Assembly (NCBI RefSeq): GCF_003334335.1
Contig: NZ_QOWQ01000024.1
From: Escherichia coli
Lineage (GTDB): Bacteria; Pseudomonadota; Gammaproteobacteria; Enterobacterales; Enterobacteriaceae
DNA: 64,000 bases
Reading direction: 5' to 3' (one strand)
Shown: positions 6,935-26,558 of the stretch, piece by piece
How positions within the stretch are numbered: the first letter of the stretch is position 1
Layout of the letters: each line of letters begins with the position of its first letter
The notes under the pieces: model-generated
Seen by the model: only the letters and a program-made list of their open reading frames with translations
The model's database searches: none
What the model was told of the DNA's origin: nothing
Translations under genes and position numbers: made by a program

Positions 6935-6953
6935 ATAACACTCCGTGGCTGGT

Positions 6954-7904
6954 TTATAGTTTGGCGGCAAGAAGATCTTCCAGTTTGCGTTGATCAACGG
7001 CGAACAGACGAATGCCTTCAGACAGTTTTTCTACCGCCATCGCATCCTGATTGTGCTCCCAACGGAACTCCGCTTCGCTCATGGGAGCTGGGCGTGGGAA
7101 CGTCTGAGAAGGTGGGATTAATTTACGTACCACTGGCGAAACTTTTTCCTGCAGCTCCTTCAGTAAATTCGGTGCGATAGTCAGTCGATCGCAGCCGGTT
7201 AAGGCGAGGATTTGTTCGGTGCGACGGAAGCTCGCGCCCATCACAATGGTTTCATAGTGGTGTTGCTTATAGTAGTCGTAGATATTGCGCACCGATTTAA
7301 CGCCCGGATCTTCTTCCACCACATACGGGTCCATCGGCTTGCGTGCCTGATACCAGTCATAAATACGCCCGACAAACGGCGAAATCAGAAAAACGCCTGC
7401 TTCCGCACAGGCCCGTGCCTGTGCAAAAGAAAACAGCAGCGTCAGGTTGCAGTTAATACCTTCTTTTTCCAGCTCTTCTGCCGCGCGAATTCCTTCCCAG
7501 GTCGAAGCCAGCTTGATCAGAATGCGTGATTTCTCAACGCCTTGTTGCTGATACAAGTCCACCAGATGGCGCGCCTTCTCAATACTCTTTTCTTTATCAA
7601 AAGAGAGGCGTGCATCAACTTCTGTTGACACGCGACCGGGTACGATTTTGAGGATTTCAGCACCGAAATTGACCGCCAGTTTGTCACACGCTGCGACCAC
7701 CTGTTGTTCCTGGGTCTTGCCATTTTTTTTACCCCAGGCGATAGCATCGTCTATTAAATGCTCATATTGTGATAATCCGGCAGCTTTGAGTAACAGCGAA
7801 GGATTGGTGGTGGCATCCTGGGGATGATAATGGCGAATGGACTCAATATCGCCGCTGTCTGCCACGACAGTGGTGAACTGTTTGATGCCGTCTAACTCGT
7901 TCAT
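6954..7904 (-). CDS. talA: transaldolase A
   Basis: 316-aa [26 protein letters not shown]...; adjacent to tktB as in the talA-tktB operon. Confidence 0.95.
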
Positions 7905-8192: not shown

Positions 8193-10472
8193 ATGGATGA
8201 CCAGTTAAAACAAAGTGCACTTGATTTCCATGAATTTCCAGTTCCAGGGAAAATCCAGGTTTCTCCAACCAAGCCTCTGGCAACACAGCGCGATCTGGCG
8301 CTGGCCTACTCACCAGGCGTTGCCGCACCTTGTCTTGAAATCGAAAAAGACCCGTTAAAAGCCTACAAATATACCGCCCGCGGTAACCTGGTGGCGGTGA
8401 TCTCTAACGGTACGGCGGTGCTGGGGTTAGGCAACATTGGCGCGCTGGCAGGCAAACCGGTGATGGAAGGCAAGGGCGTTCTGTTTAAGAAATTCGCCGG
8501 GATTGATGTATTTGACATTGAAGTTGACGAACTCGACCCGGACAAATTTATTGAAGTTGTCGCCGCGCTCGAACCAACCTTCGGCGGCATCAACCTCGAA
8601 GACATTAAAGCGCCAGAATGTTTCTATATTGAACAGAAACTGCGCGAGCGGATGAATATTCCGGTATTCCACGACGATCAGCACGGCACGGCAATTATCA
8701 GCACTGCCGCCATCCTCAACGGCTTGCGCGTGGTGGAGAAAAACATCTCCGACGTGCGGATGGTGGTTTCCGGCGCGGGTGCCGCAGCAATCGCCTGTAT
8801 GAACCTGCTGGTAGCGCTGGGTCTGCAAAAACATAACATCGTGGTTTGCGATTCAAAAGGCGTTATCTATCAGGGCCGTGAGCCAAACATGGCGGAAACC
8901 AAAGCCGCATATGCGGTGGTGGATGACGGCAAACGTACCCTCGATGATGTGATTGAAGGCGCGGATATTTTCCTGGGCTGTTCCGGCCCGAAAGTGCTGA
9001 CCCAGGAAATGGTGAAGAAAATGGCTCGTGCGCCAATGATCCTGGCGCTGGCGAACCCGGAACCGGAAATTCTGCCGCCGCTGGCGAAAGAAGTGCGTCC
9101 GGATGCCATCATTTGCACCGGTCGTTCTGACTATCCGAACCAGGTGAACAACGTCCTGTGCTTCCCGTTCATCTTCCGTGGCGCGCTGGACGTTGGCGCA
9201 ACCGCCATCAACGAAGAGATGAAACTGGCGGCGGTACGTGCGATTGCAGAACTCGCCCATGCGGAACAGAGCGAAGTGGTGGCTTCAGCGTATGGCGATC
9301 AGGATCTGAGCTTTGGTCCGGAATACATCATTCCAAAACCGTTTGATCCGCGCTTGATCGTTAAGATCGCTCCTGCGGTCGCTAAAGCCGCGATGGAGTC
9401 GGGCGTGGCGACTCGTCCGATTGCTGATTTCGACGTCTACATCGACAAGCTGACTGAGTTCGTTTACAAAACCAACCTGTTTATGAAGCCGATTTTCTCC
9501 CAGGCTCGCAAAGCGCCGAAGCGCGTTGTTCTGCCGGAAGGGGAAGAGGCGCGCGTTCTGCATGCCACTCAGGAACTGGTAACGCTGGGACTGGCGAAAC
9601 CGATCCTTATCGGTCGTCCGAACGTGATCGAAATGCGCATTCAGAAACTGGGCTTGCAGATCAAAGCGGGCGTTGATTTTGAGATCGTCAATAACGAATC
9701 CGATCCGCGCTTTAAAGAGTACTGGACCGAATACTTCCAGATCATGAAGCGTCGCGGCGTCACTCAGGAACAGGCGCAGCGGGCGCTGATCAGTAACCCG
9801 ACAGTGATCGGCGCGATCATGGTTCAGCGTGGGGAAGCCGATGCAATGATTTGCGGTACGGTGGGTGATTATCATGAACATTTTAGCGTGGTGAAAAATG
9901 TCTTTGGTTATCGCGATGGCGTTCACACCGCAGGTGCCATGAACGCGCTGCTGCTGCCGAGTGGTAACACCTTTATTGCCGATACATATGTTAATGATGA
10001 ACCGGATGCAGAAGAGCTGGCGGAGATCACCTTGATGGCGGCAGAAACTGTCCGTCGTTTTGGTATTGAGCCGCGCGTTGCTTTGTTGTCGCACTCCAAC
10101 TTTGGTTCTTCTGACTGCCCGTCGTCGAGCAAAATGCGTCAGGCGCTGGAACTGGTCAGGGAACGTGCACCAGAACTGATGATTGATGGTGAAATGCACG
10201 GCGATGCAGCGCTGGTGGAAGCGATTCGCAACGACCGTATGCCGGACAGCTCTTTGAAAGGTTCCGCCAATATTCTGGTGATGCCGAACATGGAAGCTGC
10301 CCGCATTAGTTACAACTTACTGCGTGTTTCCAGCTCGGAAGGTGTGACTGTCGGCCCGGTGCTGATGGGTGTGGCGAAACCGGTTCACGTGTTAACGCCG
10401 ATCGCATCGGTGCGTCGTATCGTCAACATGGTGGCGCTGGCCGTGGTAGAAGCGCAAACCCAACCGCTGTAA
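8193..10472 (+). CDS. maeB: NADP-dependent malic enzyme (malic enzyme + phosphotransacetylase-like domain)
   Basis: 759-aa [26 protein letters not shown]... Confidence 0.95.
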
Positions 10473-10514
10473 TTTTTTTTAACTCTCACGCTTACCCTGA
10501 ATATTCAGGGTAAG
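10473..10514 (+). terminator. T9 run followed by perfect 24-bp palindrome cttaccctgaat/attcagggtaag downstream of maeB
   Basis: Seen directly; atypical geometry for an intrinsic terminator (U-tract precedes the hairpin). Confidence 0.35.
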
Positions 10515-10764
10515 CAGTTTAGCTGCAATATATTAGTAAAGCTTATTACTGAGTTTGCGAATAATAAAAAAAAGCAGTCTATATAATATCTCGATATTAT
10601 TTTATTTATATTCATGCGTTGCATATGAAAGTTTATGCACCACAGCGAATATCTCTCCATTCTTAGTGATCTACCTCACCTTTTAAACGCGCTTGCCGAA
10701 TTTTGTTATTTACTCTGACGAAAAATTGTCACGATACACGAAAGTTTTTCACAGGCGGCGACTC

Positions 10765-11100
10765 ATGGATAAAGAACGCATCATTCAGGAATTTGTGCCC
10801 GGCAAACAGGTCACACTGGCGCATCTCATCGCGCATCCCGGTGAGGAACTGGCGAAGAAAATCGGCGTTCCGGATGCGGGCGCAATTGGCATTATGACGC
10901 TAACTCCCGGCGAAACGGCGATGATCGCCGGTGATTTAGCGCTGAAAGCCGCTGATGTGCATATCGGTTTTCTCGACCGATTCAGCGGTGCATTGGTGAT
11001 TTATGGCTCGGTGGGCGCAGTAGAAGAAGCGTTATCACAAACCGTCAGCGGTTTAGGTCGCTTATTAAATTATACGCTTTGTGAAATGACCAAAAGTTAA
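10765..11100 (+). CDS. eutS: ethanolamine-utilisation microcompartment shell protein EutS
   Basis: 111 aa from ATG 10765 ([21 protein letters not shown]...); first gene of eut operon after an AT-rich promoter region. Confidence 0.9.
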
Positions 11101-11112
11101 TACGAGGCATTC

Positions 11113-11592
11113 ATGAAACGAATTGCGTTTGTGGGTAGCGTCGGGGCAGGAAAAACAACGTTATTTAATGCGTTGCAGGGGAATTATACCCTCGCCAGAA
11201 AAACACAGGCCGTGGAATTTAATGATAAGGGCGATATTGATACGCCGGGTGAATATTTTAACCATCCCCGCTGGTATCACGCCTTAATTACCACGCTACA
11301 GGATGTAGACATGCTGATCTATGTCCATGGCGCAAATGACCCGGAAAGTCGGTTGCCTGCCGGGTTGCTGGATATTGGCGTCAGCAAACGGCAAATCGCC
11401 GTCATCAGTAAAACGGACATGCCAGATGCTGACGTCGCCGCAACGCGAAAGTTATTGCTTGAGACGGGCTTCGAAGAGCCGATTTTCGAGCTAAACAGCC
11501 ACGACCCGCAAAGCGTGCAGCAACTGGTGGATTATCTGGCATCTCTCACCAAACAGGAGGAAGCAGGTGAAAAAACTCATCACAGCGAATGA
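11113..11592 (+). CDS. eutP: EutP/PduV-family GTPase-like protein
   Basis: 159 aa, Walker A GSVGAGKTT. Confidence 0.9.
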   Translation: MKRIAFVGSVGAGKTTLFNALQGNYTLARKTQAVEFNDKGDIDTPGEYFNHPRWYHALITTLQDVDMLIYVHGANDPESRLPAGLLDIGVSKRQIAVISKTDMPDADVAATRKLLLETGFEEPIFELNSHDPQSVQQLVDYLASLTKQEEAGEKTHHSE

Positions 11593-12268
11593 TATTCGTG
11601 AAGCACACGCGCGCGGCGAACAGGCAATGTCCGTGGTTCTGCGCGCCAGCATTATTACCCCGGAAGCCCGTGAAGTGGCGGATCTACTGGGTTTTACCAT
11701 CACCGAATGTGATGAATCGATCCCGGTAACGGCGTCCGTGCCCGCCAGCGTGCCAGCCGACAAAACCGAAAGCCAGCGCATCCGCGAAACCATCATTGCC
11801 CAGCTGCCGGAAGGCCAGTTTACCGAAAGCCTGGTCGCACAGCTGATGGAAAAAGTGATGAAGGAAAAACAGTCGCTGGAGCAGGGCGCAATGCAGCCGA
11901 GCTTCAAATCGGTGACCGGCAAAGGCGGCATCAAAGTGATTGATGGCAGTAGCGTCAAGTTTGGTCGTTTCGACGGCGCAGAGCCGCATTGCGTGGGCTT
12001 GACTGATCTTGTGACCGGAGACGACGGCAGCAGCATGGCCGCCGGTTTTATGCAGTGGGAGAACGCATTCTTCCCGTGGACCCTGAACTACGACGAAATC
12101 GACATGGTGCTGGAAGGGGAGCTGCATGTTCGCCACGAAGGCCAAACCATGATCGCCAAAGCAGGCGACGTGATGTTTATCCCGAAAGGCTCCAGCATCG
12201 AATTTGGTACGACATCCAGCGTGAAATTCCTGTATGTCGCCTGGCCGGCTAACTGGCAATCCCTATGA
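11567..12268 (+). CDS. eutQ: EutQ (cupin-fold acetate kinase)
   Basis: 233 aa from GTG 11567; overlaps eutP by 26 nt. Confidence 0.9.
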   Translation: MKKLITANDIREAHARGEQAMSVVLRASIITPEAREVADLLGFTITECDESIPVTASVPASVPADKTESQRIRETIIAQLPEGQFTESLVAQLMEKVMKEKQSLEQGAMQPSFKSVTGKGGIKVIDGSSVKFGRFDGAEPHCVGLTDLVTGDDGSSMAAGFMQWENAFFPWTLNYDEIDMVLEGELHVRHEGQTMIAKAGDVMFIPKGSSIEFGTTSSVKFLYVAWPANWQSL

Positions 12269-13068
12269 AAGATTTCATCACCGAAGCATGGCTAAGAGCG
12301 AACCATACGCTCAGCGAAGGCGCAGAGATCCATCTCCCTGCGGACAGTCGCCTGACGCCCTCTGCCCGGGAGTTGCTGGAAAGCCGCCATCTGCGCATCA
12401 AGTTTATTGACGAGCAGGGCCGCCTGTTTGTTGACGATGAACAGCAGCAGCCGCAGCCCGTTCATGGGCTGACCAGTAGCGATGAACATCCGCAGGCGTG
12501 CTGCGAACTGTGTCGCCAGCCGGTGGCAAAAAAGCCGGATACGCTGACTCACCTGTCGGCGGAAAAAATGGTCGCCAAAAGCGATCCGCGTCTGGGTTTT
12601 CGCGCGGTTCTCGACAGCACCATTGCGCTGGCAGTGTGGCTGCAAATTGAACTGGCGGAACCGTGGCAGCCGTGGCTGGCGGATATCCGTTCGCGTCTTG
12701 GCAACATTATGCGCGCCGATGCGCTGGGGGAACCGCTGGGCTGCCAGGCGATTGTCGGGCTTTCTGACGAAGATCTGCATCGGCTTTCTCATCAGCCGCT
12801 GCGCTATCTCGACCACGATCATCTGGTGCCGGAAGCCAGCCACGGGCGCGATGCTGCGTTGCTCAATCTGCTACGCACCAAAGTGCGGGAAACCGAAACC
12901 GTAGCGGCGCAGGTCTTTATCACCCGCAGCTTTGAAGTATTACGCCCGGACATTTTGCAGGCGCTGAACCGCCTTTCGAGCACGGTCTACGTGATGATGA
13001 TCCTGAGCGTAACGAAGCAGCCGCTAACGGTGAAGCAGATCCAACAACGACTGGGGGAAACGCAATGA
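12265..13068 (+). CDS. eutT: ethanolamine corrinoid adenosyltransferase EutT
   Basis: 267 aa; ATGA overlap with eutQ stop. Confidence 0.9.
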
Positions 13069-14081
13069 TTATTGAACGTTGTCGTGAACTGGCGTTGCGA
13101 GCGCCCGCCAGAGTGGTTTTTCCGGATGCGTTAGACCAACGTGTGCTGAAAGCCGCGCAATATTTACATCAACAAGGTCTGGCAACGCCCATTCTGGTCG
13201 CCAATCCGTTTGAACTTCGTCAGTTTGCGCTCAGTCACGGCGTGGCGATGGACGGGCTACAGGTGATTGATCCGCATGGCAACCTCGCAATGCGGGAAGA
13301 ATTTGCTCATCGCTGGCTGGCCCGCGCGGGCGAAAAAACGCCGCCGGATGCGCTGGAAAAACTTACCGACCCTCTGATGTTCGCCGCAGCAATGGTCAGC
13401 GCCGGTAAAGCGGATGTCTGTATCGCGGGCAACCTCTCTTCCACGGCAAATGTGCTGCGTGCCGGATTACGCATTATCGGCTTGCAGCCAGGCTGTAAAA
13501 CGCTCTCTTCCATTTTCCTGATGTTGCCACAGTACAGCGGCCCGGCGTTGGGCTTTGCCGATTGCAGCGTGGTGCCACAGCCGACGGCGGCGCAGCTGGC
13601 GGATATCGCGCTTGCCAGTGCCGAAACCTGGCGCGCCATCACCGGAGAAGAGCCGCGCGTGGCGATGCTGTCGTTTTCCAGCAATGGTAGCGCCCGTCAC
13701 CCCTGTGTTGCTAACGTCCAGCAGGCGACAGAAATCGTCCGTGAGCGCGCACCAAAGCTGGTGGTGGATGGCGAGTTACAGTTTGACGCCGCCTTCGTGC
13801 CGGAAGTGGCGGCGCAAAAAGCGCCTGCCAGCCCGCTACAGGGCAAGGCCAATGTGATGGTTTTTCCGTCGCTGGAAGCCGGAAATATTGGTTACAAAAT
13901 CGCACAACGACTCGGCGGATATCGTGCCGTCGGGCCACTGATACAAGGACTTGCCGCGCCGATGCACGATCTCTCTCGTGGTTGTAGCGTGCAGGAAATT
14001 ATCGAGCTGGCGCTGGTGGCAGCTGTGCCGCGTCAGACAGAAGTGAACCGCGAAAGCAGTTTACAAACACTGGTTGAATGA
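13065..14081 (+). CDS. eutD: phosphotransacetylase EutD
   Basis: 338 aa, Pta-like; 4-nt overlap with eutT. Confidence 0.9.
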
Positions 14082-14119
14082 ACGGTCCCGTTCTGGACCC
14101 TGATAAAGAGGAAAGCACA

Positions 14120-14413
14120 ATGGAAGCATTAGGAATGATCGAAACCCGGGGCCTGGTTGCACTGATTGAGGCTTCTGACGCGATGGTGAAAGCTGCGCGC
14201 GTCAAGCTGGTTGGTGTTAAGCAGATTGGCGGCGGCCTGTGTACTGCCATGGTTCGTGGTGATGTTGCAGCCTGTAAAGCCGCGACCGATGCAGGTGCCG
14301 CAGCGGCACAGCGTATCGGCGAGCTGGTATCTGTACACGTTATCCCGCGTCCGCACGGCGACCTGGAAGAAGTCTTCCCGATCGGCCTGAAAGGCGATAG
14401 CAGCAACCTGTAA
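14120..14413 (+). CDS. eutM: BMC shell protein EutM
   Basis: 97 aa from ATG 14120 ([28 protein letters not shown]...). Confidence 0.92.
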
Positions 14414-14519
14414 TCACCCTGTGTGACGTCGATTCGGGCGTCACGCTCTCTCCTTTTTCATTTTACCTTCTGCGGAGGGTAGGGGGAGCTTTTACCTGAA
14501 ATACGCCACGGAGGCGGGT

Positions 14520-14807
14520 ATGAAACTGGCAGTCGTCACTGGACAAATTGTTTGTACCGTACGCCATCACGGACTGGCGCATGACAAATTGCTGATGGTG
14601 GAAATGATTGATCCACAAGGTAATCCTGACGGGCAATGCGCCGTCGCCATCGACAATATTGGCGCGGGAACCGGGGAGTGGGTGTTACTGGTGAGTGGCA
14701 GTTCCGCCCGCCAGGCGCATAAAAGCGAAACGTCACCGGTCGATCTGTGCGTGATTGGCATTGTCGATGAGGTGGTGTCTGGCGGTCAGGTAATTTTCCA
14801 CAAATAA
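14520..14807 (+). CDS. eutN: BMC vertex protein EutN
   Basis: 95 aa MKLAVVTGQIVCTVRHHGLAHDKLLMV... Confidence 0.9.
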   Translation: MKLAVVTGQIVCTVRHHGLAHDKLLMVEMIDPQGNPDGQCAVAIDNIGAGTGEWVLLVSGSSARQAHKSETSPVDLCVIGIVDEVVSGGQVIFHK

Positions 14808-14818
14808 GGCAGAACATC

Positions 14819-16222
14819 ATGAATCAACAGGATATTGAACAGGTGGTGAAAGCGGTACTGCTGAAAATGCAAAGCAGTGACACGCCGTCCGCCGCCGTTC
14901 ATGAGATGGGCGTTTTCGCGTCCCTGGATGACGCCGTTGCGGCAGCCAAAGTCGCCCAGCAAGGGTTAAAAAGCGTGGCAATGCGCCAGTTAGCCATTGC
15001 TGCCATTCGTGAAGCAGGCGAAAAACACGCCAGAGATTTAGCGGAACTTGCCGTCAGTGAAACCGGCATGGGGCGCGTTGAAGATAAATTTGCAAAAAAC
15101 GTCGCTCAGGCGCGCGGCACACCAGGCGTTGAGTGCCTCTCTCCGCAAGTGCTGACTGGCGACAACGGCCTGACCCTAATTGAAAACGCACCCTGGGGCG
15201 TGGTGGCTTCGGTGACGCCTTCCACTAACCCGGCGGCAACCGTAATTAACAACGCCATCAGCCTGATTGCCGCGGGCAACAGCGTCATTTTTGCCCCGCA
15301 TCCGGCGGCGAAAAAAGTCTCCCAGCGGGCGATTACGCTGCTCAACCAGGCGATTGTTGCCGCAGGTGGGCCGGAAAACTTACTGGTTACTGTGGCAAAT
15401 CCGGATATCGAAACCGCGCAACGCTTGTTCAAGTTTCCGGGTATCGGCCTGCTGGTGGTAACCGGCGGCGAAGCGGTAGTAGAAGCGGCGCGTAAACACA
15501 CCAATAAACGTCTGATTGCCGCAGGCGCTGGCAACCCGCCGGTAGTGGTGGATGAAACCGCCGACCTCGCCCGTGCCGCTCAGTCCATCGTCAAAGGCGC
15601 TTCTTTCGATAACAACATCATTTGTGCCGACGAAAAGGTACTGATTGTTGTTGATAGCGTAGCCGATGAACTGATGCGTCTGATGGAAGGCCAGCACGCG
15701 GTGAAACTGACCGCAGAACAGGCGCAGCAGCTGCAACCGGTGTTGCTGAAAAATATCGACGAGCGCGGAAAAGGCACCGTCAGCCGTGACTGGGTTGGTC
15801 GCGACGCAGGCAAAATCGCGGCGGCAATCGGCCTTAAAGTTCCGCAAGAAACGCGCCTGCTGTTTGTGGAAACCACCGCAGAACATCCGTTTGCCGTGAC
15901 TGAACTGATGATGCCGGTGTTGCCCGTCGTGCGCGTCGCCAACGTGGCGGATGCCATTGCGCTAGCGGTGAAACTGGAAGGCGGTTGCCACCACACGGCG
16001 GCAATGCACTCGCGCAACATCGAAAACATGAACCAGATGGCGAATGCTATTGATACCAGCATTTTCGTTAAGAACGGACCGTGCATTGCCGGGCTGGGGC
16101 TGGGCGGGGAAGGCTGGACCACCATGACCATCACCACGCCAACCGGTGAAGGGGTAACCAGCGCGCGTACGTTTGTCCGTCTGCGTCGCTGTGTATTAGT
16201 CGATGCGTTTCGCATTGTTTAA
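14819..16222 (+). CDS. eutE: CoA-acylating acetaldehyde dehydrogenase EutE
   Basis: 467 aa aldehyde dehydrogenase fold. Confidence 0.92.
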   Translation: MNQQDIEQVVKAVLLKMQSSDTPSAAVHEMGVFASLDDAVAAAKVAQQGLKSVAMRQLAIAAIREAGEKHARDLAELAVSETGMGRVEDKFAKNVAQARGTPGVECLSPQVLTGDNGLTLIENAPWGVVASVTPSTNPAATVINNAISLIAAGNSVIFAPHPAAKKVSQRAITLLNQAIVAAGGPENLLVTVANPDIETAQRLFKFPGIGLLVVTGGEAVVEAARKHTNKRLIAAGAGNPPVVVDETADLARAAQSIVKGASFDNNIICADEKVLIVVDSVADELMRLMEGQHAVKLTAEQAQQLQPVLLKNIDERGKGTVSRDWVGRDAGKIAAAIGLKVPQETRLLFVETTAEHPFAVTELMMPVLPVVRVANVADAIALAVKLEGGCHHTAAMHSRNIENMNQMANAIDTSIFVKNGPCIAGLGLGGEGWTTMTITTPTGEGVTSARTFVRLRRCVLVDAFRIV

Positions 16223-16232
16223 GGAGTAACAG

Positions 16233-17069
16233 ATGGCGCACGACGAACAATGGCTCACCCCACGTCTGCAAACGGCGGCAACGCTGTGTAACCAGACGCC
16301 CGCCGCGACGGAATCTCCGCTGTGGCTGGGGGTGGATCTGGGCACCTGCGATGTGGTGTCGATGGTTGTCGACCGCGACGGTCAGCCAGTGGCGGTATGC
16401 CTCGACTGGGCCGATGTGGTTCGCGACGGCATCGTCTGGGATTTCTTCGGCGCTGTCACCATTGTTCGTCGCCATCTCGACACGCTCGAGCAGCAATTCG
16501 GTCGTCGTTTTAGCCATGCGGCGACTTCATTTCCTCCAGGTACGGACCCGCGTATTTCCATCAACGTGCTGGAATCTGCCGGACTGGAAGTGAGCCATGT
16601 GCTGGATGAGCCAACCGCAGTTGCGGATCTGCTGCAACTGGACAACGCCGGTGTAGTGGATATCGGCGGCGGCACTACCGGCATTGCCATCGTGAAAAAG
16701 GGCAAGGTGACGTACTCGGCGGATGAAGCCACCGGCGGACATCACATCTCTCTGACTCTCGCCGGAAATCGCCGTATTTCGCTGGAAGAGGCGGAGCAGT
16801 ACAAGCGCGGTCACGGTGAAGAGATTTGGCCTGCGGTGAAACCGGTGTACGAAAAAATGGCGGACATTGTCGCCCGGCATATTGAAGGGCAGGGCATTAC
16901 TGATTTATGGCTGGCGGGCGGCTCTTGTATGCAACCGGGCGTGGCGGAACTGTTTCGCAAACAATTCCCGGCGTTACAGGTGCATTTACCGCAGCACAGT
17001 TTGTTTATGACCCCGCTGGCGATCGCCAGTAGTGGGCGAGAGAAAGCGGAGGGGCTATATGCAAAATGA
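16233..17069 (+). CDS. eutJ: EutJ (actin/Hsp70-fold chaperone-like protein)
   Basis: 278 aa; DIGGGTTG ATPase motif. Confidence 0.9.
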   Translation: MAHDEQWLTPRLQTAATLCNQTPAATESPLWLGVDLGTCDVVSMVVDRDGQPVAVCLDWADVVRDGIVWDFFGAVTIVRRHLDTLEQQFGRRFSHAATSFPPGTDPRISINVLESAGLEVSHVLDEPTAVADLLQLDNAGVVDIGGGTTGIAIVKKGKVTYSADEATGGHHISLTLAGNRRISLEEAEQYKRGHGEEIWPAVKPVYEKMADIVARHIEGQGITDLWLAGGSCMQPGVAELFRKQFPALQVHLPQHSLFMTPLAIASSGREKAEGLYAK

Positions 17070-18246
17070 ATTGCAGACCGCGCTCTTTCAGGCGTTCGAT
17101 ACCCTGAATCTGCAACGGGTAAAAACATTTAGCGTTCCACCGGTGACGCTTTGCGGTCCGGGCTCGGTGAGCAGTTGCGGACAGCAAGCGCAAACGCGTG
17201 GGCTGAAACATCTGTTCGTGATGGCAGACAGCTTTTTGCATCAGGCAGGGATGACCGCCGGGCTGACGCGTAGCCTGACCGTTAAAGGTATCGCCATGAC
17301 GCTCTGGCCATGTCCGGTGGGCGAACCGTGCATTACCGACGTGTGTGCAGCCGTGGCGCAGTTGCGTGAGTCAGGCTGTGATGGGGTGATCGCGTTTGGC
17401 GGCGGCTCGGTGCTGGATGCGGCGAAAGCCGTGACGTTGCTGGTGACGAACCCGGATAGCACGCTGGCAGAGATGTCAGAAACCAGCGTTCTGCAACCGC
17501 GCTTGCCGCTAATTGCCATTCCAACTACCGCCGGAACCGGCTCTGAAACCACCAATGTAACGGTGATTATCGACGCGGTGAGCGGGCGCAAGCAGGTGTT
17601 AGCCCATGCCTCGCTGATGCCGGATGTGGCGATCCTCGACGCCGCATTGACCGAAGGTGTGCCGTCGCATGTCACGGCGATGACCGGCATTGATGCGTTA
17701 ACCCATGCCATTGAAGCATACAGCGCCCTGAACGCTACACCGTTTACCGACAGTCTGGCGATTGGTGCCATTGCGATGATTGGCAAATCGCTGCCGAAAG
17801 CGGTGGGCTACGGTCACGACCTTGCCGCGCGCGAGAGCATGTTGCTGGCTTCATGTATGGCGGGAATGGCGTTTTCCAGTGCGGGTCTTGGGTTGTGCCA
17901 CGCGATGGCGCATCAGCCGGGCGCGGCGCTGCATATTCCGCACGGTCTCGCGAACGCCATGTTGCTGCCAACGGTGATGGAATTTAACCGGATGGTTTGT
18001 CGTGAACGCTTTAGTCAGATTGGTCGGGCACTGCGAACTAAAAAATCCGACGATCGTGACGCTATTAACGCGGTAAGTGAGCTGATTGCGGAAGTTGGGA
18101 TTGGTAAACGACTGGGCGATGTTGGTGCGACATCTGCGCATTACGGCGCATGGGCGCAGGCCGCGCTGGAAGATATTTGTCTGCGCAGTAACCCGCGTAC
18201 CGCCAGCCTGGAGCAGATTGTCGGCCTGTACGCAGCGGCGCAATAA
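17059..18246 (+). CDS. eutG: iron-containing alcohol dehydrogenase EutG
   Basis: 395 aa from ATG 17059 (MQNELQTALFQAFDTL...); overlaps eutJ end. Confidence 0.9.
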   Translation: MQNELQTALFQAFDTLNLQRVKTFSVPPVTLCGPGSVSSCGQQAQTRGLKHLFVMADSFLHQAGMTAGLTRSLTVKGIAMTLWPCPVGEPCITDVCAAVAQLRESGCDGVIAFGGGSVLDAAKAVTLLVTNPDSTLAEMSETSVLQPRLPLIAIPTTAGTGSETTNVTVIIDAVSGRKQVLAHASLMPDVAILDAALTEGVPSHVTAMTGIDALTHAIEAYSALNATPFTDSLAIGAIAMIGKSLPKAVGYGHDLAARESMLLASCMAGMAFSSAGLGLCHAMAHQPGAALHIPHGLANAMLLPTVMEFNRMVCRERFSQIGRALRTKKSDDRDAINAVSELIAEVGIGKRLGDVGATSAHYGAWAQAALEDICLRSNPRTASLEQIVGLYAAAQ

Positions 18247-18248
18247 AT

Positions 18249-18432
<184 letters not shown>

Positions 18433-18462
18433 ATAAATAACAACTAACAGGGAGTAAAGGCG

Positions 18463-19689
18463 ATGGGAATTAACGAAATCATCATGTACATCATGATGTT
18501 CTTTATGCTGATAGCTGCCGTAGACAGGATCCTGTCGCAGTTCGGCGGTTCTGCTCGTTTCCTCGGTAAGTTCGGTAAAAGTATCGAAGGATCAGGCGGT
18601 CAGTTCGAAGAAGGCTTTATGGCAATGGGCGCACTGGGCCTGGCGATGGTCGGTATGACCGCGCTGGCACCGGTACTGGCTCACGTTCTCGGGCCGGTAA
18701 TTATTCCGGTTTACGAAATGCTCGGCGCTAACCCATCGATGTTCGCCGGAACACTGCTGGCGTGCGATATGGGCGGCTTCTTCCTCGCCAAAGAGCTGGC
18801 GGGCGGCGACGTAGCCGCGTGGCTATACTCTGGGTTAATTCTCGGGTCGATGATGGGGCCAACGATTGTGTTTTCCATTCCGGTGGCGCTCGGCATTATC
18901 GAACCTTCTGACCGTCGTTATCTGGCGCTCGGCGTGCTGGCGGGCATTGTGACCATTCCGATTGGTTGTATCGCTGGTGGTCTGGTTGCTATGTACTCCG
19001 GTGTGCAGATCAACGGCCAGCCGGTGGAATTCACTTTCGCCCTGATCCTGATGAACATGATCCCGGTGATCATTGTTGCGATTCTGGTGGCGCTGGGGCT
19101 GAAATTCATCCCGGAAAAAATGATCAACGGCTTCCAGATCTTCGCCAAATTCCTCGTTGCATTGATCACCCTCGGTCTTGCCGCTGCGGTAGTGAAATTC
19201 CTGCTTGGCTGGGAACTGATCCCCGGTCTGGATCCTATCTTTATGGCCCCTGGCGATAAACCCGGTGAGGTGATGCGCGCCATTGAAGTTATCGGTTCTA
19301 TCTCCTGCGTTCTGTTAGGGGCGTATCCGATGGTGCTGCTGCTGACTCGCTGGTTTGAAAAACCGCTGATGAGCGTCGGTAAAGTACTGAATATGAACAA
19401 CATCGCGGCAGCCGGCATGGTGGCAACGCTTGCCAACAACATCCCGATGTTCGGCATGATGAAGCAGATGGATACCCGCGGCAAAGTCATCAACTGCGCC
19501 TTCGCCGTTTCCGCTGCTTTCGCCCTGGGCGACCACTTAGGCTTCGCCGCTGCCAACATGAACGCCATGATCTTCCCGATGATTGTCGGCAAGTTGATCG
19601 GCGGCGTAACGGCGATTGGCGTGGCGATGATGCTGGTGCCAAAAGAAGACGCGACCGCGACTAAAACCGAAGCGGAGGCACAATCGTGA
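18463..19689 (+). CDS. eutH: ethanolamine permease EutH
   Basis: 408-aa polytopic membrane protein. Confidence 0.9.
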   Translation: MGINEIIMYIMMFFMLIAAVDRILSQFGGSARFLGKFGKSIEGSGGQFEEGFMAMGALGLAMVGMTALAPVLAHVLGPVIIPVYEMLGANPSMFAGTLLACDMGGFFLAKELAGGDVAAWLYSGLILGSMMGPTIVFSIPVALGIIEPSDRRYLALGVLAGIVTIPIGCIAGGLVAMYSGVQINGQPVEFTFALILMNMIPVIIVAILVALGLKFIPEKMINGFQIFAKFLVALITLGLAAAVVKFLLGWELIPGLDPIFMAPGDKPGEVMRAIEVIGSISCVLLGAYPMVLLLTRWFEKPLMSVGKVLNMNNIAAAGMVATLANNIPMFGMMKQMDTRGKVINCAFAVSAAFALGDHLGFAAANMNAMIFPMIVGKLIGGVTAIGVAMMLVPKEDATATKTEAEAQS

Positions 19690-21089
19690 ACACTCGCCAG
19701 CTATTGAGCGTCGGTATCGATATCGGCACCACCACCACCCAGGTGATTTTCTCCCGGCTGGAGCTGGTTAACCGTGCGGCGGTGTCGCAGGTGCCGCGCT
19801 ACGAATTCATTAAACGCGAAATTAGCTGGCAAAGTCCGGTGTTCTTTACCCCTGTCGATAAACAGGGCGGTTTAAAAGAAGCGGAACTGAAAACCTTAAT
19901 ACTCGAGCAATATCATGCTGCGGGTATTGAGCCGGAAAGCGTTGATTCTGGTGCCATCATCATCACCGGTGAAAGCGCGAAAACCCGCAATGCTCGCCCG
20001 GCGGTGATGGCGCTCTCTCAGTCGCTGGGCGATTTTGTCGTTGCCAGCGCCGGGCCGCACCTCGAATCCGTGATCGCCGGTCACGGAGCCGGGGCACAAA
20101 CCCTTTCTGAACAACGGCTGTGTCGGGTACTGAATATCGACATCGGCGGTGGCACCGCGAACTACGCCCTGTTCGATGCCGGAAAAATCAGCGGCACTGC
20201 CTGCCTCAACGTCGGTGGTCGCCTGCTGGAAACCGACAGCCACGGGCGCGTGGTTTACGCTCATAAACCGGGGCAGATGATTGTGGATGAGTGCTTCGGT
20301 GCAGGCACCGACGCCCGTTCGCTGACCGGCGCGCAGCTGGTGCAGGTGACCCGGCGGATGGCAGAACTGATTGTCGAAGTGATTGACGGAACGCTCTCAC
20401 CGCTCGCGCAGGCATTGATGCAAACCGGTTTGCTGCCCGCAGGTGTTACGCCCGAAATCATTACGCTTTCTGGCGGCGTGGGCGAATGTTATCGCCACCA
20501 GCCCGCCGACCCGTTCTGTTTTGCCGATATTGGCCCGCTGCTGGCAACTGCGCTGCATGACCATCCGCGCCTGCGTGAGATGAACGTACAGTTTCCGGCG
20601 CAAACCGTGCGCGCCACGGTGATTGGCGCGGGCGCGCATACCCTTTCGCTCTCTGGCAGCACAATCTGGCTTGAGGGCGTACAACTGCCGCTGCGCAATT
20701 TGCCGGTGGCGATCCCGATTGATGAAACGGATCTGGTGGGGGCCTGGCAACAGGCGCTGATTCAGCTGGATCTTGATCCCAAAACTGACGCGTACGTGCT
20801 GGCGCTTCCCGCCTCGCTGCCTGTGCGTTACGCCGCGGTACTGACGGTCATCAACGCGTTGGTCGATTTCGTCGCGCGTTTTCCGAATCCGCATCCCCTG
20901 CTGGTGGTGGCCGGGCAGGACTTTGGTAAAGCTCTGGGCATGTTGTTGCGCCCACAGCTACAACAACTCCCGTTGGCAGTCATTGACGAAGTGATTGTCC
21001 GCGCGGGGGACTATATCGACATTGGTACGCCTCTTTTTGGCGGATCGGTTGTGCCGGTGACGGTGAAATCACTCGCATTTCCTTCCTGA
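19686..21089 (+). CDS. eutA: ethanolamine ammonia-lyase reactivase EutA
   Basis: 467 aa from GTG 19686 overlapping eutH stop. Confidence 0.9.
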   Translation: MNTRQLLSVGIDIGTTTTQVIFSRLELVNRAAVSQVPRYEFIKREISWQSPVFFTPVDKQGGLKEAELKTLILEQYHAAGIEPESVDSGAIIITGESAKTRNARPAVMALSQSLGDFVVASAGPHLESVIAGHGAGAQTLSEQRLCRVLNIDIGGGTANYALFDAGKISGTACLNVGGRLLETDSHGRVVYAHKPGQMIVDECFGAGTDARSLTGAQLVQVTRRMAELIVEVIDGTLSPLAQALMQTGLLPAGVTPEIITLSGGVGECYRHQPADPFCFADIGPLLATALHDHPRLREMNVQFPAQTVRATVIGAGAHTLSLSGSTIWLEGVQLPLRNLPVAIPIDETDLVGAWQQALIQLDLDPKTDAYVLALPASLPVRYAAVLTVINALVDFVARFPNPHPLLVVAGQDFGKALGMLLRPQLQQLPLAVIDEVIVRAGDYIDIGTPLFGGSVVPVTVKSLAFPS

Positions 21090-21100
21090 GGGAACGACTT

Positions 21101-22462
21101 ATGAAACTAAAGACCACATTGTTCGGCAATGTATATCAGTTTAAGGATGTAAAAGAGGTGCTGGCTAAAGCCAACGAACTGCGTTCGGGGGATGTGCTGG
21201 CGGGCGTCGCAGCGGCAAGCTCACAGGAGCGCGTGGCGGCAAAGCAGGTGTTGTCGGAAATGACCGTAGCGGACATCCGCAATAATCCGGTGATTGCCTA
21301 TGAAGATGACTGCGTGACGCGGCTGATTCAGGACGATGTTAACGAAACGGCCTACAACCAGATTAAAAACTGGAGCATCAGCGAACTGCGTGAGTATGTG
21401 CTGAGCGATGAAACCAGCGTGGACGACATTGCCTTTACCCGCAAAGGGCTGACCTCGGAAGTGGTCGCGGCGGTAGCGAAGATTTGCTCCAACGCGGACC
21501 TGATCTACGGCGCGAAGAAAATGCCGGTAATCAAAAAGGCCAATACCACCATCGGTATTCCGGGCACCTTTAGCGCCCGTTTGCAGCCAAATGACACCCG
21601 TGACGACGTGCAAAGTATCGCCGCGCAAATCTACGAAGGGCTTTCCTTCGGGGTGGGCGATGCGGTGATCGGCGTTAACCCGGTGACTGACGACGTGGAA
21701 AACTTAAGCCGCGTGTTGGATACCATCTATGGCGTGATCGACAAATTCAACATCCCAACTCAGGGCTGTGTACTGGCGCACGTCACCACCCAGATCGAAG
21801 CGATCCGTCGTGGCGCACCGGGCGGGCTGATTTTCCAGAGTATCTGTGGCAGCGAAAAAGGGCTGAAAGAGTTTGGCGTGGAGCTGGCGATGCTCGACGA
21901 AGCGCGCGCAGTGGGCGCGGAGTTCAACCGTATCGCCGGGGAAAACTGCCTCTACTTCGAAACCGGACAAGGCTCTGCGCTATCCGCTGGCGCTAACTTC
22001 GGCGCAGACCAGGTAACGATGGAAGCACGTAACTACGGGCTGGCGCGTCATTACGATCCGTTTATCGTCAACACCGTGGTCGGCTTTATTGGGCCGGAGT
22101 ATCTCTACAACGACCGCCAGATTATCCGTGCTGGCTTAGAAGATCACTTTATGGGCAAGCTGAGCGGCATCTCTATGGGCTGTGACTGCTGTTATACCAA
22201 CCACGCTGACGCTGACCAGAACCTCAACGAAAACCTGATGATCCTGCTCGCCACCGCAGGCTGCAACTACATCATGGGGATGCCGCTGGGTGATGACATC
22301 ATGCTCAACTACCAGACCACCGCATTCCACGATACCGCCACTGTGCGTCAGTTACTCAACCTGCGCCCGTCACCGGAGTTTGAACGCTGGCTGGAAAGCA
22401 TGGGCATTATGGCAAACGGTCGCCTGACCAAACGGGCGGGCGATCCGTCACTGTTCTTCTGA
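21101..22462 (+). CDS. eutB: ethanolamine ammonia-lyase large subunit EutB
   Basis: 453 aa; starts 11 nt after eutA stop with nothing inserted between them. Confidence 0.93.
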   Translation: MKLKTTLFGNVYQFKDVKEVLAKANELRSGDVLAGVAAASSQERVAAKQVLSEMTVADIRNNPVIAYEDDCVTRLIQDDVNETAYNQIKNWSISELREYVLSDETSVDDIAFTRKGLTSEVVAAVAKICSNADLIYGAKKMPVIKKANTTIGIPGTFSARLQPNDTRDDVQSIAAQIYEGLSFGVGDAVIGVNPVTDDVENLSRVLDTIYGVIDKFNIPTQGCVLAHVTTQIEAIRRGAPGGLIFQSICGSEKGLKEFGVELAMLDEARAVGAEFNRIAGENCLYFETGQGSALSAGANFGADQVTMEARNYGLARHYDPFIVNTVVGFIGPEYLYNDRQIIRAGLEDHFMGKLSGISMGCDCCYTNHADADQNLNENLMILLATAGCNYIMGMPLGDDIMLNYQTTAFHDTATVRQLLNLRPSPEFERWLESMGIMANGRLTKRAGDPSLFF

Positions 22463-22482
22463 TGACGCGGAGATAACATATC

Positions 22483-23370
22483 ATGGATCAAAAACAGATT
22501 GAAGAAATTGTACGCAGCGTGATGGCGTCAATGGGACAAGCGGCCCCCGCGCCGTCAGAAGCAAAGTGCGCCACCACCAACTGTGCGGCACCGGTGACCT
22601 CGGAAAGCTGTGCGCTGGATTTAGGTTCCGCTGAAGCAAAAGCGTGGATTGGTGTTGAAAATCCGCATCGCGCAGACGTATTAACAGAACTGCGCCGCAG
22701 CACCGTGGCCCGCGTTTGTACCGGTCGTGCCGGTCCGCGTCCACGTACGCAGGCGCTGCTGCGTTTCCTGGCCGATCACTCTCGTTCGAAAGATACCGTA
22801 CTGAAAGAAGTGCCGGAAGAGTGGGTGAAAGCGCAGGGCTTGCTGGAAGTACGCTCTGAAATTAGCGACAAAAATCTCTACCTGACTCGCCCGGATATGG
22901 GCCGCCGCCTGTGTGCAGAAGCTGTTGAAGCGCTGAAAGCGCAGTGTGTTGCCAATCCGGACGTACAGGTCGTTATTTCTGATGGCCTGTCAACTGATGC
23001 GATCACCGTGAACTACGAAGAGATCCTGCCACCGCTGATGGCGGGCCTGAAACAGGCCGGGCTGAAAGTCGGTACACCATTCTTTGTTCGTTATGGTCGC
23101 GTGAAGATTGAAGATCAGATCGGTGAGATCCTCGGCGCGAAAGTAGTGATCCTGCTGGTGGGCGAACGTCCGGGGTTGGGTCAGTCAGAAAGCCTCTCCT
23201 GCTACGCCGTTTACTCGCCGCGTATGGCGACCACCGTTGAGGCCGATCGCACCTGTATCTCTAACATTCACCAGGGCGGCACGCCGCCGGTTGAAGCCGC
23301 AGCCGTCATTGTGGATTTGGCGAAACGTATGCTGGAGCAGAAAGCATCCGGCATCAACATGACCCGATAA
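22483..23370 (+). CDS. eutC: ethanolamine ammonia-lyase small subunit EutC
   Basis: 295 aa. Confidence 0.92.
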
Positions 23371-23379
23371 GGAGGCATC

Positions 23380-24039
23380 ATGCCAGCTTTAGATTTGATT
23401 CGACCGTCTGTCACCGCTATGCGGGTGATTGCCTCCGTTAACGCCGATTTTGCGCGTGAACTGAAATTGCCGCCGCATATTCGTAGCCTCGGTCTGATTT
23501 CTGCCGACTCCGATGACGTCACCTACATTGCCGCTGATGAAGCGACCAAGCAGGCGATGGTGGAAGTGGTGTATGGCCGCTCGCTATATGCGGGCGCTGC
23601 ACACGGCCCGTCACCGACTGCCGGTGAAGTGCTGATTATGCTTGGTGGGCCAAACCCGGCGGAAGTGCGTGCAGGTCTGGATGCGATGATTGCGCATATT
23701 GAAAATGGCGCAGCTTTCCAGTGGGCTAATGACGCGCAAGATACGGCATTCCTGGCACATGTAGTTTCGCGTACCGGTTCTTATCTCTCATCAACCGCCG
23801 GGATCACGCTTGGCGATCCGATGGCGTATCTGGTGGCACCGCCGCTGGAAGCGACCTATGGCATTGATGCAGCCCTGAAGTCTGCCGACGTACAGCTGGC
23901 GACCTATGTCCCGCCACCGTCTGAAACCAACTACTCGGCAGCATTTTTAACCGGTAGCCAGGCAGCGTGTAAAGCAGCCTGTAACGCCTTTACCGATGCA
24001 GTGCTGGAAATCGCGCGTAATCCAATCCAGCGTGCGTAA
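23380..24039 (+). CDS. eutL: BMC shell protein EutL (tandem BMC domain)
   Basis: 219 aa. Confidence 0.9.
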
Positions 24040-24051
24040 CGGAGGTTGCCG

Positions 24052-24552
24052 ATGATCAATGCACTGGGATTGCTGGAAGTGGACGGCATGGTCGCCGCGA
24101 TAGATGCAGCGGATGCCATGCTCAAAGCAGCTAACGTTCGTCTGCTCAGTCACGAAGTGCTTGACCCTGGTCGCTTAACGCTGGTGGTGGAAGGCGATCT
24201 GGCGGCGTGTCGTGCGGCGCTGGACGCAGGTTGTGCTGCCGCGATGCGTACCGGGCGTGTCATCAGCCGCAAGGAGATCGGTCGGCCAGACGATGACACC
24301 CAGTGGCTGGTTACTGGCTTTAACCGCCAGCCGAAGCAACCCGTAAGGGAACCCGACGCGCCAGTTATCGTCGCGGAATCTGCTGACGAGTTGTTGGCGC
24401 TGTTAACATCAGTACGTCAGGGAATGACGGCAGGAGAAGTGGCTGCCCACTTTGGCTGGCCGCTGGAAAAAGCCAGAAATGCGCTCGAACAGCTCTTTTC
24501 TGCCGGGACGTTACGTAAACGCAGTAGTCGTTATCGTCTCAAGCCCCATTAA
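24052..24552 (+). CDS. eutK: BMC shell protein EutK
   Basis: 166 aa from ATG 24052 (MINALGLLEVDGMVAAIDA...), SD ggagg 6 nt upstream; ORF track starts at upstream TTG 24046. Confidence 0.88.
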   Translation: MINALGLLEVDGMVAAIDAADAMLKAANVRLLSHEVLDPGRLTLVVEGDLAACRAALDAGCAAAMRTGRVISRKEIGRPDDDTQWLVTGFNRQPKQPVREPDAPVIVAESADELLALLTSVRQGMTAGEVAAHFGWPLEKARNALEQLFSAGTLRKRSSRYRLKPH

Positions 24553-24597
24553 CCTGTCGGAGGTGCCGGGTGTCCTACAACACCCGGCATTAACATC

Positions 24598-25650
24598 ATG
24601 AAAAAGACCCGTACAGCCAATTTGCACCATCTTTATCATGAACCCTTACCCGAAAACCTGAAGCTCACGCCGAAGGTCGAAGTGGATAATGTTCATCAAC
24701 GACAGACAACGGATGTCTATGAACATGCTTTAACGATTACCGCCTGGCAGCAGATTTACGATCAGCTGCATCCGGGCAAGTTTCATGGTGAATTTACGGA
24801 AATTCTACTCGATGATATTCAGGTTTTTCGTGAATACACCGGTCTGGCGCTGCGTCAGTCGTGCCTGGTCTGGCCGAACTCGTTCTGGTTTGGCATTCCG
24901 GCGACGCGCGGTGAGCAGGGATTTAACGGTTCGCAATGTCTGGGAAGCGCGGAAATCGCCACCCGCCCTGGTGGCACTGAATTTGAACTGAGCACGCCGG
25001 ATGATTACACGATCCTGGGCGTGGTGCTTTCTGAAGATGTCATCACCCGGCAGGCTAACTTTTTGCATAACCCGGATCGGGTATTACATATGTTGCGTAA
25101 CCAGTCGGCGCTGGAAGTGAAAGAGCAGCATAAAGCCGCGCTGTGGGGCTTTGTCCAACAGGCGCTGGCGACGTTTTGCGAGAATCCGGAAAATCTCCAT
25201 CAGCCTGCAGTGCGAAAAGTGCTGGGGGATAATTTGCTAATGGCGATGGGGGCCATGCTGGAAGAAGCGCAACCAATGGTGACGGCGGAAAGCATCAGTC
25301 ATCAGAGTTACCGTCGATTGCTTTCCCGCGCCCGTGAATATGTGCTGGAAAACATGTCCGAACCGGTGACGGTGCTGGATTTGTGTAATCAACTGCATGT
25401 CAGCCGCCGCACGCTACAAAACGCGTTTCACGCTATTTTAGGCATTGGCCCGAACGCGTGGCTGAAACGCATTCGCCTGAACGCCGTACGCCGCGAACTG
25501 ATAAGTCCGTGGTCGCAAAGTATGACGGTAAAAGACGCCGCCATGCAGTGGGGATTCTGGCATCTGGGGCAATTTGCCACGGATTACCAGCAGCTGTTTT
25601 CCGAGAAGCCGTCACTGACGCTGCATCAGCGGATGCGGGAGTGGGGGTGA
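24598..25650 (+). CDS. eutR: AraC-family transcriptional activator EutR
   Basis: 350 aa; C-terminal AraC HTH. Confidence 0.9.
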
Positions 25651-25655
25651 GGGAG

Positions 25656-26558
<903 letters not shown>

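Follow-up and report, generated by a model that had tools for sequence, protein, structure and literature searches.

A contiguous 17-gene ethanolamine utilization (eut) operon with an unoccupied prophage attachment site in Escherichia coli

Gene Content of the eut Locus

We analyzed a 64,000-nt stretch of Escherichia coli DNA (hereafter, the window). The genes eutSPQTDMNEJGHABCLKR occupied positions 10765–25650 on the plus strand, from the ATG of eutS (10765) to the end of the eutR stop codon (25650), and were preceded by the maeB–eutS intergenic region. The NCBIfam model and bit score are given for each product.

10473..10764, +, maeB–eutS intergenic region, 292 nt from the maeB stop to the eutS start
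10765..11100, +, eutS, BMC-H type shell protein, 111 aa (NF012012, 247 bits, residues 1–111 of 111)
11113..11592, +, eutP, acetate kinase/GTPase-like protein, 159 aa (NF012011, 350 bits, full length)
11567..12268, +, eutQ, cupin-type acetate kinase, 233 aa, GTG start (NF012001, 502 bits, full length)
12265..13068, +, eutT, corrinoid adenosyltransferase, 267 aa (NF011595, 571 bits)
13065..14081, +, eutD, phosphotransacetylase, 338 aa, annotated pta/eutD (NF007233, 411 bits)
14120..14413, +, eutM, major hexameric shell protein, 97 aa (NF012018, 213 bits)
14520..14807, +, eutN, pentameric vertex shell protein, 95 aa (NF011992, 210 bits)
14819..16222, +, eutE, CoA-acylating acetaldehyde dehydrogenase, 467 aa (NF011927, 738 bits)
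16233..17069, +, eutJ, DnaK-like chaperone, 278 aa (NF011660, 402 bits)
17059..18246, +, eutG, iron-type alcohol dehydrogenase, 395 aa (NF011998, 888 bits)
18463..19689, +, eutH, ethanolamine permease, 408 aa (NF011665, 874 bits)
19686..21089, +, eutA, ethanolamine ammonia-lyase reactivase, 467 aa, GTG start (NF007991, 1069 bits)
21101..22462, +, eutB, ethanolamine ammonia-lyase large subunit, 453 aa (NF011649, 665 bits)
22483..23370, +, eutC, ethanolamine ammonia-lyase small subunit, 295 aa (NF003971, 340 bits, residues 52–294)
23380..24039, +, eutL, pseudohexameric (tandem-domain) shell protein, 219 aa (NF011934, 400 bits)
24052..24552, +, eutK, C-terminally extended shell protein, 166 aa (NF012010, 362 bits)
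24598..25650, +, eutR, AraC-family activator, 350 aa (NF007522, 785 bits)

Each of the 17 frames had a single start and a single terminal stop with no internal stop codons, and in a profile search each product matched its own NCBIfam model over its full length and above the curated cut-off. The RefSeq annotation of strain NCTC9041 lists the same 17 genes with identical boundaries; the 17-kb stretch was 100% identical to RefSeq genomes such as that of NCTC9041 and to those of many natural isolates. Frames, coordinates, profile matches and annotation thus agree with an earlier note on this DNA, according to which all 17 genes are present and intact.

Junctions, Repeats and Regulatory Signals

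Five gene junctions overlapped: eutP/eutQ (26 nt), eutQ/eutT (4 nt), eutT/eutD (4 nt), eutJ/eutG (11 nt), and eutH/eutA (4 nt). The spacers in the first half of the operon measured 12 (eutS–eutP), 38 (eutD–eutM), 106 (eutM–eutN), 11 (eutN–eutE), and 10 nt (eutE–eutJ), and those in the second half 216 (eutG–eutH), 11 (eutA–eutB), 20 (eutB–eutC), 9 (eutC–eutL), 12 (eutL–eutK), and 45 nt (eutK–eutR). The several overlapping junctions and the 11 nt between the eutA stop and the eutB start that had been noted earlier were therefore found again; the description of the genes as tightly coupled applies to most junctions, except for the eutG–eutH (216 nt) and eutM–eutN (106 nt) gaps. The latter holds a 10-pair hairpin, and the former the following repeats, which are also present in MG1655:

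18245..18432, +, pair of 88-nt REP/BIME-type units between eutG and eutH, direct repeat, 97% identity, spacing 100 nt

Rfam matches in the window were to tRNAs, RtT, naRNA4, and ES036; the naRNA4 match lay within the eutG–eutH repeats (18301–18382, 71.8 bits), and both naRNA4 and ES036 were taken as REP-type. Apart from this REP-type match, neither a cobalamin riboswitch nor other regulatory RNA families were found in the operon by Rfam. A scan for consensus sigma-70 promoters gave no hit upstream of eutS or eutR and, with 2 hits against 8.2 in shuffled sequence, carries no weight; a miss is expected for eutS if its promoter is activator-dependent. By analogy with the Salmonella and E. coli literature (including a figure legend in PMC7617246), the maeB–eutS gap is the predicted site of the main EutR-dependent promoter (PI).

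Assignment to the EUT1 Class and Predicted Functioning

The signature enzyme of EUT1 loci, ethanolamine ammonia-lyase, was encoded by eutB and eutC, both scoring above the cut-off (665 bits with NF011649 and 340 bits with NF003971, respectively). Three classes of shell proteins were identified by full-length equivalog or subfamily matches: hexamers (EutM, EutS, EutK), a tandem-domain pseudohexamer (EutL), and a pentamer (EutN). The aldehyde core and cofactor recycling were represented by EutE, EutD, EutG, the EutA reactivase, and the EutT adenosyltransferase. The regulator gene at the 3′ end, eutR, is of the AraC type found in EUT1 loci, whereas regulation in Firmicutes relies on the EutVW two-component system and a riboswitch. 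The order SPQTDMNEJGHABCLKR ran on one strand with no foreign insertions and was colinear with MG1655 except for the prophage of the latter.

The 51-residue N-terminal extension of EutC ahead of the NF003971 match begins with a predicted encapsulation peptide, which probably matches that of Salmonella enterica LT2. The N-terminus of EutE (MNQQDIEQVVKAVLLKMQ) is a predicted amphipathic targeting segment. In E. coli, EutC(1–20)–GFP gives puncta when eut is induced (PMC11334477).

The eut operon of LT2 likewise comprises 17 genes, arranged on one strand in the order found here and ending with eutR (Kofoid et al. 1999, cited in PMC7617246). LT2 provides a species orthologue and not an identical sequence. 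The Eut proteins of K-12 and LT2 share >73% identity (PMC11334477), and in E. coli the eutG–eutH spacer carries REP-type repeats.

By analogy with established work on Salmonella and E. coli, EutR together with ethanolamine and adenosylcobalamin would activate the promoter upstream of eutS, and the 17 genes would be transcribed as one unit. Ethanolamine would enter via EutH and be split by EutBC into ammonia and acetaldehyde within a shell of EutS, EutM, EutN, EutL, and EutK, with EutA probably reactivating the lyase and EutT adenosylating its cofactor; EutC and EutE would be carried into the shell by their own N-terminal peptides. Acetaldehyde would then be converted to acetyl-CoA by EutE, while ethanol production by EutG would recycle NADH. 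EutD would form acetyl-phosphate, from which EutP/EutQ may yield acetate and ATP.

Prophage Attachment Site and Distribution of the Uninterrupted State

The eutA–eutB junction of the window contained the following feature:

21067..21100, +, unoccupied CPZ-55/IntZ-type attachment site: last 23 nt of eutA with its TGA stop, and the 11-nt spacer with the eutB ribosome-binding site

In K-12, the 6790-bp cryptic prophage CPZ-55 (intZ, yffL–S, antisense to eut) splits eutA and eutB, whereas in the window these genes are separated by 11 nt. The earlier note had placed CPZ-55 here in MG1655, and correctly so: the element lies at 2558691–2565480 between eutB and eutA, so a contiguous junction, which would have refuted the note, is not found in reference K-12. 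An 8-bp core, CTTCCTGA, is present on both sides of the MG1655 prophage inside an imperfect match of about 23 nt and occurs as a single copy in the window. The window junction had neither the intZ and yff genes nor the duplicated CTTCCTGA of an IntZ-type element, and no remnant of CPZ-55 was found there. An overlap of BLAST alignments suggested a 23-bp attachment duplication, which direct reading reduced to the exact 8-bp core within the imperfect 23-nt match. The 8 bp agree with PMC6379469, although the term “transposon-like” used there fits less naturally than an integrase site. A site vacated by exact excision of an IntZ-type element would be identical in sequence to one that had never been occupied.

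In PMC6652756, the eutA–eutB junction is called a hot spot for prophage insertion and CPZ-55 is regarded as typical of K-12; according to PMC6379469, CPZ-55 is present in 8% of 638 genomes. An unbroken eutA–eutB junction was found in 4965 of the 5426 complete E. coli genomes searched, in various phylogroups and in strains B, W, O157:H7, UTI89, and Nissle among others. At least two sequence types of IntZ-type elements occur at the 3′ end of eutA: about 216 genomes carry one with ≥99% identity to the K-12 intZ and about 199 one with 80–90% identity. The uninterrupted junction is therefore the majority state and hence ordinary, while the prophage interrupts the operon only in laboratory K-12 and a small number of other lineages. 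That the window shows the ancestral state, as had been proposed, is supported by this majority, the empty site being ancestral by parsimony.

In K-12, the antisense CPZ-55 in the integrase site at the 3′ end of eutA severs eutBCLKR from the promoter. Strain BW25113 with the prophage did not grow on ethanolamine as a carbon source (M9 with ethanolamine and B12), did not form compartments and did not induce eutB (PMC7617246); in published experiments, K-12 freed of the prophage regained ethanolamine use. Because of this restoration the operon of the window is expected to work, a prediction from sequence, since an intact sequence alone is not proof of expression. Two strains with the uninterrupted layout and a near-identical backbone, BW25113 eut+ (scarless prophage removal) and laboratory W3110 eut+ (Jallet et al. 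2024), use ethanolamine as a nitrogen source in experiments (Jallet et al. 2024 for W3110), and the latter forms compartments (PMC11334477). The window differs from them in EutP (I124M), EutR (N110I), the IS186 orientation, and the tRNA-Val copy number. From these near-identical K-12 eut+ strains we infer B12-dependent growth on ethanolamine and polyhedral bodies in the source strain as well. The strain falls among the approximately 90% of E. coli that keep a predicted-working ethanolamine operon, and at this locus MG1655 is the exception. Having such an operon has been linked to fitness in the gut and urinary tract.

Comparison with K-12 and the IS186 Insertion

Leaving the prophage aside, 12 substitutions across about 64 kb separated the window from MG1655, and four of these lay within eut. 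The DNA flanking the prophage in the eut locus of MG1655/BW25113 was 99.98% identical to the window, and 15 of the 17 Eut proteins were identical; EutP had one silent change and I124M, and residue 110 of EutR was N in the window and I in MG1655. The statement that the window is not MG1655-like at this locus cannot therefore be upheld beyond the prophage itself. The host is probably a phylogroup-A-like strain very near K-12. It departs from K-12 in the orientation of IS186 and in the number of tRNA-Val copies; the latter ranges between 1 and 3 within K-12 stocks themselves. Other genomes differed elsewhere: NCTC9041 has an identical eut sequence but carries IS30 within xapA and three copies of tRNA-Val, and lacks IS186 at pdeA/nupC; in ATCC 8739, another gene replaces yfeN–xapABR; and CP8-3_Sichuan was not colinear with the window.

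The insertion sequence lies at the end of the window:

63924..64000, +, IS186/IS421 end lying in the terminator hairpin of pdeA/nupC, final 77 nt of the window, with the 23-nt terminal repeat CATAAGCGCTAACTTAAGGGTTG from 63924

The insertion point is that of IS186C of MG1655 (nupC–pdeA), in the terminator hairpin CCGGGGAATTATCCCCGG with the 10-bp flanking duplication GGAATTATCC. This hairpin matches GGGG-N6-CCCC, presumably the preferred target of IS186. Past the terminal repeat, the window matches the other end of IS186, and its copy is thus inverted with respect to IS186C, the transposase of which is directed as nupC and opposite to pdeA. ATCC 8739 has the same junction as the window, with the transposase co-directional with pdeA; the whole 1339-bp element of MG1655 is identical there, as are the flanks. 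Of the “K-12-like IS186 position” claimed before, the site and target duplication stand, and the orientation does not.

An IS186 at pdeA/nupC was found in about 940 genomes, 465 in the orientation of the window and 476 in that of K-12. PCN061 combines the K-12 orientation with contiguous eutA–eutB, and NCTC9041 has the identical eut sequence with no IS186. As these individual counter-example genomes demonstrate, the prophage and IS186 assort independently, and IS186 is uninformative on the prophage. The earlier view that the uninterrupted operon is hard to reconcile with IS186 thus falls away, because of the near-identity to MG1655, the shared preferred site, and the independent assortment of the two markers. 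A shared IS186 site is poor evidence for K-12 ancestry.

Alternative Explanations

The region is almost certainly a canonical enterobacterial EUT1 locus, encoding B12-dependent breakdown of ethanolamine in a protein-shelled microcompartment, in its normal uninterrupted form with an empty attachment site. It is improbable that the site was emptied secondarily, i.e., that an ancestor carried a CPZ-55/IntZ-type element and later precise excision restored the operon. The backbone is indeed very near K-12 (12 substitutions), the prophage is absent from some K-12-derived stocks (the AG100 assembly, ET12567), laboratory W3110 is described as eut+ (PMC11334477), and excision by the integrase leaves no scar. 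However, 12 natural isolates (pigs, humans, chicken, water) carry exactly this 17-kb stretch, with the attachment site empty; the unoccupied site predominates in every lineage sampled, and the junction holds no remnant of an element. The IS186 orientation and tRNA-Val copy number also argue against excision, because they indicate that the window is not a K-12 derivative.

An intact but silent or non-functional operon, for example, through a regulatory defect or EutR/EutP variants, is still less probable. EutR residue 110 and EutP residue 124 do differ from MG1655, and function is here predicted from sequence; however, the EutR of the window is a common allele, because the same RefSeq protein is found in NCTC9041 and PCN061, the K-12 alleles were functional after prophage removal in published work, and all 17 proteins score as full-length equivalogs. 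That a K-12-like backbone, the missing prophage, and IS186 were brought together by chimeric assembly or contamination is hardly credible: no positive support was found, although no complete genome in the collection matched the last 24 kb whole and in one piece. Each of the three features recurs in many complete, independent genomes, and Z1323PEC0012, for example, matches both the eutA–eutB junction and the last 24 kb at 100%, tRNA-Val copy number aside.

With the normal uninterrupted locus as the preferred reading, two more far-reaching ideas have, even jointly, only a slim chance: that the 3′ end of eutA is a reversible on/off switch for ethanolamine catabolism, turned “on” in the window after excision, or that IS186 inverted in place at pdeA/nupC. 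The near-equal split between the two orientations might reflect such inversion of the element or, alternatively, repeated insertion at a hot spot.

Organization of the eut Operon

Seventeen eut reading frames were found in succession in the window, each with a correct start, a single terminal stop, and no internal stops; all 17 products matched their NCBIfam models over the full span, far above the curated cut-off. The boundaries were the same as in the RefSeq annotation of strain NCTC9041 (eutS, P, Q, T, pta(eutD), M, N, E, J, G, H, A, B, C, L, K, R), in which maeB lies upstream of the operon, and hemF and amiA, both convergent, lie downstream. A dozen complete E. coli chromosomes, of pig, human, chicken, and water origin, matched the 17 kb at 10000–27000 with 100% identity.

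10765–25650, + strand: eutSPQTDMNEJGHABCLKR operon
14421–14456: strong hairpin just 3′ of eutM (10 base pairs, six of them G-C), with a T-rich run after it
18245–18432: pair of 88-nt REP/BIME-type units with a spacing of 100 nt, filling the eutG–eutH spacer
63924–64000: end of IS186/IS421, the final 77 nt of the window

Junction spacing in the eut operon (nt; negative values are overlaps)
S–P 12; P/Q −26; Q/T −4; T/D −4; D–M 38; M–N 106
N–E 11; E–J 10; J/G −11; G–H 216; H/A −4
A–B 11; B–C 20; C–L 9; L–K 12; K–R 45

Thus, the 17 intact genes with several overlaps described in the earlier note were confirmed, with five overlapping junctions, as was the distance of 11 nt from the eutA stop to the eutB start. 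Its wording "tightly coupled" applied to most junctions but not to the two loose spacers, eutG–eutH and eutM–eutN. One of the eutG–eutH units matched Rfam naRNA4 (71.8 bits), and both units were also present in MG1655. The eutM–eutN hairpin may act as a partial terminator or an RNA-stabilising structure, raising EutM output relative to the downstream genes. The stop codons of the convergent eutR and hemF were only 5 nt apart (25648–25658), as in MG1655, leaving no space for a terminator between them.

The eutA–eutB Junction

The cryptic prophage CPZ-55 is annotated in MG1655 between eutB and eutA (2558691–2565480, 6790 bp), as the earlier note had stated, so the K-12 reference lacks a contiguous junction; its genes, intZ and yffL-S, are antisense to eut. 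In the alignment of the window with MG1655, the first block ended at the final base of the eutA stop, and the second began 23 nt earlier. An exact 8-bp core, CTTCCTGA, takes in the eutA stop and is present in MG1655 at both prophage ends, where it forms part of a roughly 23-nt stretch of imperfect similarity. In the window, this core occurred once and was followed by the 11-nt spacer bearing the eutB ribosome-binding site. One core in the window versus two flanking the prophage in MG1655 identifies the junction, judging by its sequence, as an empty integrase attachment site.

An uninterrupted eutA–eutB junction is the norm: of 5426 complete E. coli genomes, 4965 matched a 1-kb junction probe without a break (among them B derivatives, W, O157:H7, UTI89, and Nissle 1917), and at least 4296 were unbroken over the full 17-kb stretch. 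An intZ-type integrase adjoined eutB in 394 genomes; the eutB–intZ probe matched about 216 genomes at ≥99% identity, mostly K-12 laboratory derivatives, and about 199 at 80–90%. The latter values at the same site indicate that related but different elements use it; strains VG888-46E9 and TBE6 are examples, and the integrase of this group of about 199 was only 84–87% identical to K-12 intZ. These counts agree with published statements: one paper calls the site a hot spot of prophage insertion and considers CPZ-55 characteristic of K-12 (PMC6652756), and another detected CPZ-55 in 8% of 638 genomes (PMC6379469).

By parsimony, the uninterrupted state is ancestral, as the earlier note proposed. 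Since excision is scarless, a site restored by precise excision would look the same in the window's lineage as one never occupied, and a few K-12 stocks do lack CPZ-55 (the AG100 assembly, ET12567, and a laboratory W3110); restoration is nevertheless less likely, because the identical empty-site haplotype was found in many natural isolates. In the AG100 assembly (NZ_LN832404.1; 1911–2090 of the extracted locus), the 3′ end of eutA and the spacer were instead duplicated in tandem (90 nt), and the annotation lists this as a 24-aa EutA fragment; the duplication could be an excision scar, a repair scar, or an assembly artefact.

Similarity to MG1655

Outside the prophage, the window and MG1655 were separated by six substitutions across the initial 21,089 nt and another six across the 37,518 nt that follow; the final 5.4 kb had none. 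With so few substitutions, the locus is very K-12-like apart from the insertion, and the claim that it is "not MG1655-like" did not hold. Four substitutions fell in eut, two of them changing amino acids (window to K-12): EutP I124M (window position 11484) and EutR N110I (24926). NCTC9041 and PCN061 share their EutR RefSeq protein with the window; K-12 residue 110 may therefore be the derived state.

Several minor features were also observed. The tRNA-Val(UAC) gene was present as a single copy beside tRNA-Lys (58452–58607); MG1655, NCTC9041, and ATCC 8739 have three copies (valU-valX-valY), BW25113 and J53 two, and TG1 apparently one. This 242-nt difference arose through the loss of units from a tandem tRNA array. 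Rfam matches were found to the RtT element adjoining tRNA-Lys (58296–58421) and to ES036 (CssrF; 41169–41211), the latter probably REP-related; BLAST revealed inverted copies of about 140 nt with 89% identity (30200–30338 and 41121–41262). In NCTC9041, xapA is interrupted by IS30 (4902–6958 of its extracted locus), while the window xapA is uninterrupted; the eut region is identical in both.

IS186 at the Window End

IS186 is inserted in the terminator hairpin that serves both pdeA and nupC, two convergent genes; the empty site is AAAAAAACCGGGGAATTATCCCCGGCTTTTTT, with a 10-bp flanking duplication, GGAATTATCC. An IS186 preference for GGGG-N6-CCCC was reportedly described by saiSree et al. in 2001, and the empty site fits this pattern. 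The MG1655 copy, IS186C, has the same insertion nucleotide and 10-bp flanks but the opposite orientation; ATCC 8739 has the window's junction, with a 1339-bp element identical to IS186C, inverted (comparison loci L002 6925–8263 and L004 1774–3118). The two orientations were about equally frequent: 465 of the 5426 genomes had that of the window, among them ATCC 8739 and strain C, and 476 had that of K-12, among them clinical and animal isolates. Repeated hot-spot insertion or in-place inversion could account for both.

The prophage and IS186 are unlinked markers: PCN061 combines IS186 in K-12 orientation with contiguous eutA–eutB, NCTC9041 shares the window's exact eut sequence and lacks IS186 at this site, and T142A, which appears K-12-like, has both K-12 features. 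The supposed conflict with a K-12-like IS186 dissolves, the orientation being opposite and both orientations widespread; there is nothing to reconcile. The observation of the earlier note was thus confirmed, and its interpretation was partly right and partly wrong.

Expected Function

The window carries a textbook operon in its usual form. Judging from the gene set and the established literature, EutR with ethanolamine and adenosylcobalamin would switch on the promoter upstream of eutS; according to a figure legend in PMC7617246, a weak internal promoter keeps up eutR. Ethanolamine would be imported by EutH and converted by EutBC, within a shell of EutS, M, N, L, and K, to ammonia and acetaldehyde, with EutA and EutT keeping the cofactor active. 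EutE, EutG, and EutD would handle the aldehyde, regenerating NAD and CoA, and EutP and EutQ would serve as acetate kinases. EutC and EutE have N-terminal targeting peptides; EutC(1-20)-GFP formed puncta upon induction in E. coli (PMC11334477).

Direct experiments with the prophage present and removed support the functional importance of operon continuity. In BW25113, which carries the prophage, eutS and eutR were induced and eutB was not, no compartments were formed, and ethanolamine did not support growth as the carbon source (PMC7617246); scarless removal of the prophage restored growth with ethanolamine as a nitrogen source (PMC11334477). Since only two residues differ from the K-12 Eut proteins, and the EutR allele is common to NCTC9041 and PCN061, the window operon is expected to be functional.
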